Positions 7,141-14,964 of a stretch of DNA of 64,000 nt are shown piece after piece (position 1 is the stretch's first letter; every line of letters begins with the position of its first letter). The notes under the pieces were generated by a model. The model made no database searches. It worked only from the letters and a program-made list of their open reading frames with translations, and was not told the DNA's origin. Source of the DNA: Actinomycetota bacterium (GTDB taxonomy: Bacteria; Actinomycetota; Thermoleophilia; BMS3ABIN01); assembly GCA_016235065.1 (NCBI GenBank), contig JACRMB010000010.1, forward strand, positions 6,281-70,280, read 5' to 3'. Both the position numbers and the translations under genes were made by a program.

Positions 7141-7449
7141 TTCCTTGGTTGCTTCCCTGCCCAGCTTGACCGTCCCGTAGTCTGATTGAGATTGGCACTC
7201 TTCTTGTAACTCATATTTATCCCCAATAGCCGGCAGACTAACCTTAACCTGGGGATTCGCCTCCGTCCGATTCGATGCGGCGCAACCAGAACAGCGCCGA
7301 TTCGGGACGAATAGAGGGAGTATAGCAAAGAGTAGAAGTGTGTTTCCAGAGCAATTTCTCATATTTCTCATCCCCCTTGCTTATCTGCTATTTTGATTAA
7401 GCAATATCCTGGCCCGCCACGGGCCGGGAGACCCCGCGAAAAGATCCTG

Positions 7450-8487
7450 ATGCCAGTGAAACGAAAAGCCTTAGCCCTGCTCTCCGGCGGCCTCGACAGC
7501 CGCCTGGCGGTCAAGATGATGCTCGAACAGGGCATCGAGATAGAGGGACTCAACTTCGTGACCGTGTTCTGCACCTGCACCGCGAGGAGCAGCTGCAAAT
7601 CCGAAGCGAGGAAGGCCGCCGAGGAGTACGGCATCCCGCTCAAGGTCCTCAACGCCACCGACGAGATCCTCGAAGCCATCGGCAACCCCAAACACGGTTT
7701 CGGCCGCGGCCTCAACCCCTGCCTGGACTGCCGTATCAGCATGTTCCGCCGGGCCGGCAGGTACATGAAAGAGACCGGGGCTGATTTCCTGGTGACCGGT
7801 GAGGTCTGGGGTGAGCGGCCCATGTCCCAGAGGCCGGACGCGCTGGCGACCATCGAGAAGGAATCCGGCCTTGCCGGGCTTATCGTGCGCCCGCTGTCGG
7901 CTCACCTCTTCGAGCCCAGCATCCCCGAGCGCGAGGGCTGGATCGACCGGGAGAAAATGATGGCGATCAGCGGCCGTTCCCGCAAACCCCAGATGCAGCT
8001 GGCCCACGAGCTGGGCGTCAACGACTATCCCTGCCCTGCCGGCGGCTGTCTGCTCTGCGACAAGAATTTTGCGGCCCGCCTCAAGCACCTCCTCCAGGAA
8101 GATCCCAAGCCCGCGATCGCCGAGATCCAGGCTCTGAGACTCGGGCGGCTCATCTTTTCTTCCGGGGGGAAGCGGATCATGATCCCAAGGAACGAGGAAG
8201 AGACCCAGCGGCTCGTGGCGCTGGCCCGTCCCAGCGACCTGCTCATGAGCGCCGAAGATCACATGGGCCCCACCGCCGTCATCAAGGGCAGCGAGATCGA
8301 CGAGGCGACATTGCAGGAAGCGGCGGCGCTGACCGCCCGCTACGGGCAGGGACGCGACGAGGAGAAAGTGACCGTATCTTACTGGCCCGCCGGCCAGGAA
8401 GTGGACGGCGGTTCCCCGGATCGCCATGCCCTGACTGTCTCCCCCGCTGATGGCTGGCGGCTGGCGGACTCGCTCACCCGGGAATAG
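7450..8487 (+). CDS. PP-loop ATPase, ThiI/MnmA-like putative tRNA sulfurtransferase with DUF814-like C-terminus
   Basis: SGGLDS PP-loop, NPCLDCR, TGEVWGERPMSQ and YPCPAGGCLLC. Confidence 0.8.
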   Translation: MPVKRKALALLSGGLDSRLAVKMMLEQGIEIEGLNFVTVFCTCTARSSCKSEARKAAEEYGIPLKVLNATDEILEAIGNPKHGFGRGLNPCLDCRISMFRRAGRYMKETGADFLVTGEVWGERPMSQRPDALATIEKESGLAGLIVRPLSAHLFEPSIPEREGWIDREKMMAISGRSRKPQMQLAHELGVNDYPCPAGGCLLCDKNFAARLKHLLQEDPKPAIAEIQALRLGRLIFSSGGKRIMIPRNEEETQRLVALARPSDLLMSAEDHMGPTAVIKGSEIDEATLQEAAALTARYGQGRDEEKVTVSYWPAGQEVDGGSPDRHALTVSPADGWRLADSLTRE

Positions 8488-8628
8488 GGAACTGACGGGG
8501 CCGCGCTCCGGTCCAGCCTTCACATGCCTTCTTTCTTATGCCTGCCGTTCTACCTCGGGATGAATCCTTTCCCCATGCGAAACATCTAAGGTATTAAATA
8601 GCGCAATGAAGGGTCCAGTACGAGGAAC

Positions 8629-8684
8629 GATTGCACAGATAAAGTGCGAAGCTCCCGATTACACAGATAAAGTGCGAAGCTCCC
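8629..8684 (+). repeat. Tandem 28-bp direct repeat (2 copies) ending at the RBS of the putative selenoprotein gene
   Basis: GATT(G/A)CACAGATAAAGTGCGAAGCTCCC at 8629-8656 and 8657-8684 with one mismatch, followed by AGGAGG. Confidence 0.9.
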
Positions 8685-8696
8685 AGGAGGTAACAG

Positions 8697-9044
8697 ATGT
8701 CAGTGAATGACAAGGTTGAGATCCCGGTATTCGGGTCACGGTACCTGGACTCCTGCTCCGGCGGTTGAGGCCCCAGCTGGTCTCTGGAAGAGATCACGGA
8801 GCATATCAACAGGCAGCTTGACCAGGATTTTGGCGGGACCGCCCAAATCCGGTATGTGGATTTCGATTCGCCGGAACTCTCGGAATTCCCGGAAGTCTAT
8901 CAGCGGGTGGCTGTTGACCGCGACCTTGAACCCGGCACGATCCTGTTCAGGGGTGAACTGGTGCCGATATGGGATGTCCAGTACAACCGCCTGACCGAAG
9001 AGTTCGTGAAGATGGGCGCAGAGCCCGTCCGCAAGGCTTCGTAG
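8697..9044 (+). CDS. Putative selenoprotein, YuzD/DUF1462-like thioredoxin fold, CxxxU motif (115 aa)
   Basis: RBS AGGAGG 8685-8690, ATG 8697 and in-frame TGA 8766-8768 in DSCSGG*GPSW. The frame stays open to TAG 9044 (same frame as track ORF 8856..9044). A SECIS-like hairpin follows the TGA. Confidence 0.75.
8778..8796 (+). promoter_or_regulatory. Candidate bacterial SECIS hairpin
   Basis: TGGTCTCT-GGA-AGAGATCA stem-loop starting 10 nt after the UGA, with a loop G about 18 nt downstream. Confidence 0.6.
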
Positions 9045-9069
9045 TACCTGCTCCAGCAGAATGAATAAA

Positions 9070-9097
9070 GGACGGCCATGGCGCCGTCCTTTTTTTG
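9070..9097 (+). terminator. Intrinsic terminator after the putative selenoprotein gene
   Basis: GGACGGC...GCCGTCC stem followed by a T-run. Confidence 0.75.
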
Positions 9098-9163
9098 TCC
9101 GTTTCGAATGCATCCGCCGCCAGGCCAACAATCGGCCACCAGAGCGTCGCGCACCGGCCGCGG

Positions 9164-10138
9164 CTACTTCGCCAGCACTCCCAGCAGCTGCCACAGATCC
9201 AGGTCGAGCTGCTTGGTCTTCGCCGCGACTTCCTCCAGCGGGGTCAGGGCGATGCCGCCGTCGATCCAGCCTGCCAGCCGGCCGCTGCCGCCTCCAGCCA
9301 GGAACTCGACTGCCGCCGCTCCCAGCCGGCTCGCCAGTATCCGGTCGAAACTGGATGGCGCTCCACCGCGCTGTACGTGCCCAAGGATCGTGACCCTAAG
9401 TTCATAGCCGATCTCGTCCTCACGCGACCGGAAATATTCCATGCATCGCTGGGCGTTGTTACGGGCGCCGTCGGTGACGACAGCCAGCGCGTAGCGCTTG
9501 CCACGGGCGTGGGCCGCCGCCAGCTGCTGCTCCACCTCGGCGGGCTCGATATCGAACTCGGGCGTAACGATGACGTCGGCGCCCCCGGCCAGCCCCGCCG
9601 CCAGCGCCAGGTAGCCGCAGCTCTTCCCCATGACCTCGATGAGAAAAGCCCGGTGGTGCGACTCGGCGGTAGTGCGGATGCGGTCGATCGACTGGATTAT
9701 TATGTCGAGCGCCGTGTCGACGCCGATGGTGATGTCCGAGCCGTGGAGATCGTTGTCGACAGTGGAGGCGACCCCGGCCACAGCCAGTCCCATCCTGCCA
9801 AGCTCATGGGCGCCCGCCTGGGAGCCGTTGCCGCCGATGACGATCAGGCCATCGATGTTCTCGCGCCGCAGGTTCTCCACCGCCCGGCCCCTGGCAGCCT
9901 CGCTCTCGCGGAACTCCCGGCTGCGGGCCGTCCCCAGGAAGGTGCCGCCCAGGTGCAATATCTCGCTGACGTCACGGTTCCCCAGGGGGATGACGTCGCC
10001 TTCGATCAGGCCCTCGAAGCCGTTGCGGACCCCGAACATCTCCATGCCGATGTCGGTGCCCACCCGCACGATAGCCCGGACCGCCGCGTTCATCCCCGGC
10101 GCGTCGCCGCCACTGGTGACGACTGCTATGCGTTTCAT
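9164..10138 (-). CDS. pfkA: ATP-dependent 6-phosphofructokinase
   Basis: TSGGDAPGMN, GGNGS (Gly at the ATP-type position), TVDND, EVMG and LGHVQRGG. Confidence 0.92.
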   Translation of the reverse strand: MKRIAVVTSGGDAPGMNAAVRAIVRVGTDIGMEMFGVRNGFEGLIEGDVIPLGNRDVSEILHLGGTFLGTARSREFRESEAARGRAVENLRRENIDGLIVIGGNGSQAGAHELGRMGLAVAGVASTVDNDLHGSDITIGVDTALDIIIQSIDRIRTTAESHHRAFLIEVMGKSCGYLALAAGLAGGADVIVTPEFDIEPAEVEQQLAAAHARGKRYALAVVTDGARNNAQRCMEYFRSREDEIGYELRVTILGHVQRGGAPSSFDRILASRLGAAAVEFLAGGGSGRLAGWIDGGIALTPLEEVAAKTKQLDLDLWQLLGVLAK

Positions 10139-13692: not shown

Positions 13693-14739
13693 TTACGCGA
13701 AGAACGTCTGCGCCAGGTCCCAGAACTCCTGCCTAACGACCTTGCGCTCGCCCACCGCGACCTCGAGCGGTACGGCCACTATCGCGTCGCCCTGCAGCGC
13801 AGCCATAAGGCCGAACTCCTCAGCCTGCACCATTTCGGCGGCCTTTGCCCCGTAGCGGGTCGCCAGGATGCGGTCGTGAGCAGTCGGAGTGCCGCCGCGC
13901 TGGATATGCCCCAGAACGGTCGCCCGGGTCTCGAAACCGGTTCGGCGCTCGATCTCCTTGGCCAGCAGGTTGGCGACGCCTCCCAGCTTGACGTTGCCGA
14001 ACGCGTCGACCTCGTCGGACTGGGTGACCATCTGCTCCTCGCCTTCCTTGGTGACCAGCTTCGCGCCTTCGCTGACAGCGACGATGCTGAAGTTCTTGCT
14101 GCCCGACTGGCGGCGGCGGATGATATCGCAGGCCTCCTCGACGGAGACATCATATTCAGGGATTAGGATGACATCGGCGCCGCCGGCGATACCGGCCATG
14201 ATCGTTATCCAGCCGGTGTGCCGGCCCATGATCTCCACGACGATGACGCGGTCGTGGGATTCCGCGGTCGTGTGCAGCCGGTCGATGTTCTCGGTCGCGA
14301 TCTGCACGGCGGTGTCGAAGCCGAAAGTGTAGTCGGTCCCGGAAAGGTCGTTGTCGATCGTCTTGGGCACGCCCACCATGTTGAGCGCGTATTTGCCATG
14401 GAGCTGGTTGGCCACGCCCAGGGTGTCGTCGCCGCCGATGGCGATGGTCGCCCAGATCTCATTCTGCCGCAGGTTGTCGACCAGCAGCTCGACGCCGCCT
14501 TCGGTCTTCATGGGATTGGTACGGGAGGTCCCCAGGATGGTGCCGCCGCGATGCAGGATACCTGAGATAGTATTTATGTCAAGAGTCATGTAATCGTTCT
14601 CGAGCAGGCCCCGCCAGCCGCCGTGGACGCCGACCATCTCGTAGCCGGCCCGGGTGAGCTTGAGGGTGGCCGCGCGGATGACCGCGTTGAGTCCAGGGCA
14701 GTCGCCGCCGCCGGTAAGGATCGCAACCTTCTTCGCCAT
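13693..14739 (-). CDS. Phosphofructokinase, group III, probably PPi-dependent
   Basis: TGGGDCPGLN, GGDDT and PKTIDND (Asp/Lys signature associated with PPi use). Start moved to ATG 14739. Confidence 0.88.
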   Translation of the reverse strand: MAKKVAILTGGGDCPGLNAVIRAATLKLTRAGYEMVGVHGGWRGLLENDYMTLDINTISGILHRGGTILGTSRTNPMKTEGGVELLVDNLRQNEIWATIAIGGDDTLGVANQLHGKYALNMVGVPKTIDNDLSGTDYTFGFDTAVQIATENIDRLHTTAESHDRVIVVEIMGRHTGWITIMAGIAGGADVILIPEYDVSVEEACDIIRRRQSGSKNFSIVAVSEGAKLVTKEGEEQMVTQSDEVDAFGNVKLGGVANLLAKEIERRTGFETRATVLGHIQRGGTPTAHDRILATRYGAKAAEMVQAEEFGLMAALQGDAIVAVPLEVAVGERKVVRQEFWDLAQTFFA

Positions 14740-14964
14740 CAGAAAACCTCCATTTTGCCGTGGGTTGATCTGCATGAGGTCAGGCCCCGCGGCGCGATGG
14801 CACCAGCCAACGGCGAGACGGAACCAACCAGTAATTGACAAGGGGAATAATATCTTGTGCGCGGAAGGAACGAAACCCGGGATCCTGATCGGGCGGCGAT
14901 CACCGGAACCGGTATATGGACAACCGGGTCCTGCCGGCATGGCCGACCGGATACTGCGGGAAGG

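Follow-up and report, generated by a model that had tools for sequence, protein, structure and literature searches.

Does a TGA near the start of a short open frame end the protein made there, or is it read as selenocysteine (Sec), and if it is read through, what might the product do? The question is raised by a locus in the window, the whole stretch of 64,000 nucleotides analysed here, which comes from the genome of a bacterium of the class Thermoleophilia in the Actinomycetota. An earlier note on the letters of the window had proposed that a selenoprotein with a YuzD-like thioredoxin fold and a CxxxU motif lies hidden at this place. We refer to the gene in question as the Sec gene.

Results

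A reading frame with an internal TGA

The elements that had been read in the letters, namely a ribosome-binding site, an ATG, an in-frame TGA with an open frame behind it and a closing TAG, are each found at the places given for them (Table 1). The TGA is codon 24, 91 open codons lie beyond it, and the frame ends with TAG at 9042-9044; the terminator claimed after the TAG, a stem with a T run, is also present. It had been expected that gene callers would give a 62-aa fragment only, and under table 11 the sole entry of the ORF list at the Sec gene is indeed a 62-aa ORF at 8856-9044. In the public protein collection, tails of the Sec gene occur as fragments of 62 aa and 65 aa (P0026 and P0003), and the tail fragments of the collection are mostly unnamed or "hypothetical". 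A sigma-70 promoter scan near the Sec gene found no promoter, no paralogue was found in its own genome, and a single-protein search with the product over genome contigs gave no match.

Table 1. Positions in the window of the Sec gene, its signals and its upstream neighbour.
Feature	Position	Strand	Details
ThiI/MnmA-like PP-loop protein with NFACT-R domain	7393-8487	+	Pfam ThiI E 4e-11, NFACT-R_2 E 9e-16
ECF-sigma-type promoter motif, GAATCCTT-N14-ATCTAA	8562-8589	+	-35 box 8562-8569, -10 box 8584-8589; predicted function
Shine-Dalgarno AGGAGG	8685-8690	+	from sequence; relatives have similar sites
Sec gene: predicted selenoprotein, 115 residues, YuzD/ArsD-like thioredoxin fold	8697-9044	+	
ATG of the Sec gene	8697-8699	+	
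Cys20-Ser-Gly-Gly-Sec24 motif	8754-8768	+	Cys20 codon 8754-8756, TGA 8766-8768
SECIS-type hairpin	8778-8796	+	TGGTCTCT-GGA-AGAGATCA; 8-bp stem, GGA loop 8786-8788
Intrinsic-terminator-like element	9067-9100	+	stem 9067-9092 plus T run

The leader just 5′ of the ribosome site contains a tandem duplication of 28 nt (window 8628-8683, 96% identical) that is not seen in four relatives checked. Contigs of a possible source sequencing run match without differences, and in the runs of a second study the TGA of relatives is unchanged among the matches listed; neither result is counted as evidence.

Conservation of the TGA in relatives

A search of the class (401 genomes) matched 61 genomes and had the TGA once in 59 of 63 places; at the fetched class loci it stands at the identical column in 30 out of 30. 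The earlier note had proposed to look for conservation upstream of the TGA, and on that side G13, S14, D18 and C20 are invariant in 31 rows. A search of the phylum brought 8 more distant genes, 7 with TGA at the same column; in the eighth, GG-U-GP sits ahead of C-x4-C. Homologues of the Sec gene thus far occur in three phyla: Actinomycetota (Thermoleophilia, Coriobacteriia and others), Bacillota and Chloroflexota. Further genes were collected by a DNA pattern with a free third base at the site (TGN), which gave at least 120 stretches; 74 passed the family profile, and L116 and L143 were removed from the pattern set as short chance matches. Because this pattern also fixes downstream codons it is biased towards hairpin-bearing genes; among the matches listed, 72 of 72 true homologues read TGA, and 43 of 46 non-homologues read TGG, TGC or TGT.

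When codon 24 is followed through the homologues, as had been suggested, it is TGA or a Cys codon, with a Trp codon in one decayed copy. Cys occupies the Sec column in two proteins (P0002 and P0229), about 68% identical to the product of the Sec gene. In a tree, P0002 nests among the Sec forms of the close family of the window gene; the tree is a quick version of 115 columns with most forks open, and is used for neighbour pairs only, not for the number of Sec origins. P0229 as a query over metagenome contigs gave no match. The exceptional copy (G227) reads TGG at the site and has also lost its Cys, the YxD Tyr and the later Pro; we read it, from its sequence, as decay or an assembly error.

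A SECIS-type hairpin and its covariation

The hairpin claimed 10 nt after the TGA is present with its GGA loop; the first base of the stem is the 10th after the TGA, and the loop lies 17 nt beyond the UGA. For a bacterial SECIS, the model described in PMC13188914 asks for a loop of 3-9 nt that has G in the first two places, a 4-16-bp stem, a distance of 16-37 nt from the UGA and an MFE of -7.5 kcal/mol or lower. The hairpin of the Sec gene falls within all four of these limits (GGA, 8 bp, 17 nt, -13.3 kcal/mol). The folding energy over 45 nt, taken by itself, is not unusual (z -1.09, 24 of 200 shuffles being as good). The real evidence is conservation across relatives. A comparable hairpin placement is rare, being found for 91 of 81,190 TGA triplets in the own genome, under limits (stem of at least 8 bp, G-first loop of 3-4 nt, 17-19 nt downstream) that were set after seeing the Sec gene, selD and fdhA.

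For the comparison, 110 genes were reduced to 102 by the removal of 8 duplicates, and pairs were counted without L041 and L045-L048, in which the hairpin is absent or shifted by 3-4 nt. Of the 776 stem cells in the 97 in-register genes, 763 are paired; as a control, sliding the 3′ arm by 1-3 bases leaves 298-535. The 33 genes that the DNA pattern did not pick have 262 of 264 cells paired. Stem pairs 1, 6, 7 and 8 have undergone two-sided changes between lineages, together with changes of amino acid. The loop is GGA in 91 of the 97 genes. Codon +5 is TCT in 95 of 97, while TCT makes up 7.9% of the Ser codons of the genome and 15 of 196 Ser codons elsewhere in the same 97-gene set; as related sequences are not independent, these stem and codon figures are counts and not probabilities.

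Selenocysteine machinery of the genome

The own genome (98.9% complete) contains selA, selB, selC and selD, all four of which had been named as genes to look for. Both selA and selB score above curated cut-offs and adjoin tRNA-Sec; selD is likewise above its curated cut-off, and itself has an in-frame TGA. One in-frame TGA each is found in SelD, FdhA and the large subunit of a NiFeSe hydrogenase. The hairpins of SelD and FdhA share the layout of that of the Sec gene, with a three-base G-first loop 17 and 19 nt past the UGA. In the class, selA is present in 52 of 58 genomes with the TGA form, the six misses being 66-90% complete, and it is present in 40 of 43 other genomes carrying the Sec gene; the class-wide background is 265 of 401 genomes.

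A codon-bias scan for further selenoproteins was too noisy to define the selenoproteome and is a source of leads only. At C4:663295-663741 (+) of the own genome, a lipoprotein-like ORF contains EGCU; its TGA is at 663562, with a hairpin of 8 bp 19 nt further on. By eye this ORF resembles a listed DUF1573 selenoprotein type. On C8, a small ORF with a TGA at 86646 (-), HesB/IscA-like by eye, is a candidate selenoprotein with an AGGU motif and, 17 nt beyond the TGA, a hairpin of 7 bp. Another candidate is a thioredoxin-like ORF with UxxC (TUPAC) at C8:95041-95289 (+).

Protein family, fold and motif

No model of Pfam or NCBIfam release 20 names the product of the Sec gene or its 30 closest relatives; the best NCBIfam score is for UXX-star family 1, at E 0.15 in one of 31 members. 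The YuzD/DUF1462 assignment guessed in the earlier note holds at the level of the superfamily, where the family profile matches 1xg8 (S. aureus SA0798, the DUF1462 structure) at E 3.7e-6 over positions 7-108, with the CASC of 1xg8 aligned on the Cys/Sec motif. It does not hold for the product itself, which has no match to the DUF1462 model PF07315 (gathering cut-off 25 bits). Among 31 close relatives one reaches E 0.076, and it is more distant Sec relatives that arrive at the cut-off (L043 with 31.5, L042 with 25.0), while 37 of 104 wider relatives match at E 0.001. The wider family profile takes in 433 representative proteins at E 0.001. According to the available part of PMC3091736, 1xg8 is classed as thioredoxin-like, and this class together with the sequence homology supports a thioredoxin-like fold of the product.

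Two AlphaFold models (pLDDT 84.1 and 88.5) begin with a strand and a loose loop that holds Cys20 and Sec24; a long helix starts at residue 30 and is followed by the YxD strand and two short helices, after which come a Pro and a hairpin and then the last helix. Sec24 is placed six residues before helix 1, in the least confident stretch of both models. In the structure comparison 1xg8 comes out on top (Z 6.7, rmsd 3.8, 96 aligned), in a tie with Trx2 (6.5) and ArsD (6.0); the top matches are thioredoxin-fold chains, every Z being below 8. Foldseek with the model of the product returned nothing at E 0.001.

The CxxxU motif described in the earlier note is present in the Sec gene, yet it proves to be a local variant. 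Over the 102 genes the spacing is C-x4-U in 74, C-x3-U in 25 and C-x5-U in 1, and 2 have no upstream Cys; the C-x3-U of the product also departs from the CxxC spacing of DUF1462. One Cys besides Sec is found in 96 of the 102 proteins. Immediately before the motif Cys, 75 of 100 genes have Ser or Ala, and none has Cys.

A profile of 104 rows matches ArsD with a probability of 95.5% (E 1.6e-8, 92 columns), versus 1.1% for TrxA, and C-x3/4-U-G-P falls on C13-x4-C18-G-P of ArsD. With this TrxA probability, and with a motif six residues before the helix, the product does not agree with canonical thioredoxin (PF00085), in which helix 1 begins with the CxxC. It does not match the ArsD models NF033727 and PF06953 either, and 1 of 104 wider relatives matches PF06953 at E 3e-5. 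There are two chalcogen residues only, not the three metalloid ligands of ArsD (Cys12, Cys13 and Cys18). The motif fits the ArsD loop far better than the thioredoxin CxxC, so that a classical thioredoxin mechanism cannot be assumed. At the same time a single Cys besides Sec is too few for three-thiol binding of the ArsD type. By its sequence, the motif is an ArsD-type loop minus the third Cys of ArsD, and the family is predicted to belong in the YuzD/DUF1462-ArsD branch of the thioredoxin fold.

A promoter motif shared with an ECF sigma gene

The motif GAATCCTT-N14-ATCTAA lies upstream in 20 of 21 loci of the close family of the Sec gene. The exact motif has 79 matches in 24 of 24 close-family genomes, versus 3 for the reversed pattern; about 20 of the 79 are the sites from which it was derived. 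A weight matrix built on 19 relatives, with the site of the window left out, finds 14 sites above 17 bits in the own genome versus 3 in the reversed genome. Among the genes behind these sites are the Sec gene, an ECF sigma gene and its zinc-finger anti-sigma, an FmdB-ferredoxin-thioredoxin operon divergent from the sigma gene, hsp20-clpB and dnaK. Others are a YeeE pair, an SQR-like flavoprotein, DUF302, and a small gene that has a rhodanese after it; a few sites stand before unnamed or doubtful ORFs. The downstream genes were named by Pfam, dnaK by eye. Of 30 exact matches fetched, 11 belong to ECF sigma genes, 9 to the Sec gene, 4 to hsp20/clpB, 3 to the SQR-like flavoprotein and 1 to YeeE, with 2 unassigned.

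The sigma and anti-sigma genes lie divergently from the genes for the FmdB zinc ribbon, a 7-Cys ferredoxin and TrxA (C8:45469-47352; L189:9470-11353). Of 11 relatives fetched, 10 share this arrangement, the motif lying on both strands, and a second site of at least 17 bits precedes FmdB in 11 of 11 loci. The motif is thus shared with the sigma gene itself, as is expected of a regulon member. It ends 3-4 nt before the ATG assigned to the sigma gene, and with so short a gap the start site or the start codon of that gene is uncertain. Outside the close family, none of 59 loci has the motif upstream of the Sec gene. From this motif analysis, the Sec gene is very likely a member of an ECF stress regulon.

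The promoter motif also stands before two small unnamed acidic helical proteins, at C5:41079-41264 (-) and C4:105623-105778 (-). At L075:1207-1761 (Bacillota), directly after the Sec gene, a segment similar by eye is fused to DUF302.

Gene neighbourhood

The fixed neighbour in the close family is the ThiI-like gene, not a redox module: it lies directly upstream of the Sec gene in 20 of 21 loci, and in 5 relatives it is itself preceded by a DUF523/2-thiouracil desulfurase gene. The ThiI-like protein at 7393-8487 has several Cys motifs and is below all NCBIfam cut-offs. Since the promoter motif sits between the ThiI-like gene and the Sec gene, the two are probably not one unit. Outside the close family, 53 of 59 Sec loci have at least one of four genes on the same strand no more than 1.3 kb away, with homologue counts of 38 for ferredoxin, 14 for thioredoxin, 14 for FmdB and 1 for DUF302. 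For instance, at one Bacillota locus five genes stand in series: ArsR, ferredoxin, Trx, FmdB and the Sec gene. The ferredoxin of the module has seven invariant Cys. The promoter motif in the close family and the neighbours elsewhere therefore lead by two independent routes to the same FmdB-ferredoxin-thioredoxin module. In the own genome, trxB and three Trx genes are above cut-off.

Two phosphofructokinase-like genes lie within 5 kb, at window 9164-10138 (Pfam) and 13693-14940 (-) (by eye). In another genome (G460), L182:3215-7270 holds arsD-arsR-arsA-arsA, a Sec-containing relative with GG-U-GP before C-x4-C, and then acr3; the position of Sec differs in this relative, which is inside an arsenic-resistance cluster.

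Discussion

The TGA of the Sec gene is, on the comparisons above, very likely decoded as Sec. Were it a true stop, a sequencing error or a Trp codon, a 62-residue fragment or nothing would be made. Besides the TGG of G227, such a reading has in its favour nine database proteins in which a similar GGW/GW motif contains Trp. Five of these entries were looked up, and they come from contigs of 546-1046 nt only; one cluster with a Trp entry also has truncated members of 63-68 aa, from longer contigs. For three Trp entries the nearest genome copies read TGA (L133, L050/L076 and L159), so that the entries appear to point to gene callers on code 4. Moreover, the own genome has tRNA-Trp(CCA) and tRNA-Sec(TCA), and the hairpin covaries. 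A stop, error or Trp codon is therefore very improbable. In four proteins (P0191, P0164, P0111 and P0186) Trp in GGW/GW occurs at other loop positions, twice in P0191; such sites may mark additional places for Sec, or a double selenoprotein.

The family appears to be a real selenoprotein family that is uncatalogued, although BSepDB, Haft and Tolstoy 2025 or Deng et al. 2026 could list it. The selenoprotein families of Haft and Tolstoy 2025 reportedly appear in the review table and in NCBIfam, and Deng et al. 2026 is said to deal with groundwater MAGs and deep-Sep candidates. Literature searches for a selenoprotein with DUF1462 found nothing, those with Thermoleophilia or Coriobacteriia returned unrelated papers only, and the papers found for YuzD are, by title, not about selenium. 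The family is absent from the 2026 table of 119 selenoprotein families in the available part of PMC13188914, which also has 0 mentions of YuzD and DUF1462; YuzD, DUF1462 and ArsD have 0 mentions in the available parts of PMC13326102, PMC12013277 and PMC13745706. The thioredoxin-fold selenoproteins in Table 1 of PMC13188914, so far as that paper is available, are Trx, Grx, SaoT, UXX-star, Sec.1/Sec.2, HUIPC and VPGUxxT. The product resembles them in its UGA with a bacterial SECIS and in its small, predicted thioredoxin-type fold; it differs in that no motif listed there is C-x3-5-U-G-P. With YuzD/DUF1462 (PF07315; 1xg8) it has in common the size, the predicted fold order, the Cys motif past strand 1, the YxD strand and the later Pro. 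Unlike YuzD, it has Sec in place of the second Cys and a GG-U-GP context, and its family places three to five residues between Cys and Sec where YuzD has CxxC. Two relatives carry the JGI name 'disulfide oxidoreductase YuzD', and the literature search found no experimental function for YuzD.

The predicted regulon recalls that of SigH in M. tuberculosis, which, in the available part of PMC4803200, takes in heat-shock and thioredoxin genes besides the gene for SigH itself. Common to it and the SigH/RshA regulons described there are an ECF sigma beside a zinc-finger anti-sigma, a motif for self-regulation, and thioredoxin, dnaK and clpB among the targets. Nevertheless, the -10 box is TCTAA/TCAAA, whereas that of SigH is GTT in the same source; a box of the former kind is reported for sigma E of meningococci and E. 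coli in the available part of PMC2893595. The predicted targets also differ from the SigH regulon in including a selenoprotein, a 7-Cys ferredoxin, YeeE and an SQR-like flavoprotein.

The following pathway can be proposed. SelB on the hairpin 17 nt downstream would bring Sec-tRNA to the UGA, as in the known Sel pathway. The ECF sigma, held by its zinc-finger anti-sigma until thiol stress, would transcribe the Sec gene and drive its own gene, the FmdB-ferredoxin-thioredoxin operon, hsp20-clpB, dnaK and the sulfur-handling genes. Induction under thiol or heat stress is suggested by analogy with SigH (PMC4803200, in its available part). In the flexible Gly-rich loop before helix 1, the selenolate could then attack a disulfide or persulfide of a client, Cys20 would resolve the intermediate to a selenenylsulfide, and TrxA/TrxB would reduce the latter. 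The likeliest clients would be two Cys-ligated proteins whose genes accompany the Sec gene, namely the FmdB zinc ribbon and the 7-Cys ferredoxin. With trxB present, an FTR-like path from ferredoxin to thioredoxin, considered as well, need not be invoked. Redox thiol repair is the somewhat favoured chemistry of Cys20/Sec24. A 115-residue selenoprotein with the predicted fold of the YuzD/ArsD branch, repairing oxidised or sulfur-modified protein thiols in stress, has slightly better than even chances.

Alternatively, the product may be an ArsD-like selenoprotein whose Cys/Sec loop binds a soft metal, a metalloid, a sulfur atom or an Fe-S unit and passes it to a partner, a doubtful reading though not a negligible one; that the partner would be the 7-Cys ferredoxin, the FmdB zinc ribbon or the ThiI-like enzyme is equally doubtful. 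The profile match to ArsD, an arsenic metallochaperone (NF033727; PDB 3kgk, 3ktb), and the fit of the two loops suggest it, and many Cys-only relatives (29 of 94 database proteins) have at least three loop Cys. Most of the neighbouring genes code for proteins with a Cys-ligated metal or Fe-S centre (ferredoxin, DUF362, FmdB and DUF523/2-thiouracil desulfurase), and one Sec relative lies within the arsD-arsR-arsA-arsA-X-acr3 cluster of L182. However, that cluster already has its own ArsD, and an ars operon is found at 1 of the 59 loci outside the close family. ArsD binds As(III) through Cys12, Cys13 and Cys18 (PMC12415280, in its available part), and the Sec family is without an equivalent of Cys12, so that the third ligand is missing from a loop with Ser or Ala as the usual residue before the Cys. 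Behind the 14 top motif sites of the own genome no metal efflux pump was recognised, three small ORFs there being unnamed. Thiol or persulfide reduction is favoured because there are two ligands only and because thiols, sulfur and damaged proteins are what the co-regulated genes deal with. In a narrower and still more tentative form, a selenium-based carrier of the ArsD type would take reactive sulfur, a soft metal or an Fe-S unit to ferredoxin or FmdB. If true, this carrier would be the fourth part of an FmdB-ferredoxin-thioredoxin-selenoprotein module in three phyla, switched on by a dedicated pair of ECF sigma and zinc anti-sigma, and would provide the first function for the YuzD family. 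A role in tRNA thiolation, in which the selenoprotein supplies or reduces sulfur for the adjacent ThiI-like enzyme of this lineage, is unlikely. The constant upstream position of the ThiI-like gene, and the desulfurase gene before it in 5 relatives, would suit such a role, but the Sec gene has its own conserved promoter motif between both genes and the ThiI-like neighbour is absent from the cluster lists of loci outside the close family.

New thioredoxin-fold selenoprotein families are reported regularly, and one more is therefore a moderate surprise; the added value lies in the link to a regulon and in the covariation of the hairpin. Public protein sets hold members of the family truncated or with Trp. 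With the Sec gene, the bacterial selenoproteome gains a family across Actinomycetota, Bacillota and Chloroflexota, and the uncharacterised YuzD family is tied to ArsD through the Cys loop. For the proposed thiol-repair selenoprotein, the shared promoter motif in one lineage and the shared neighbours in others provide a functional setting that is testable.
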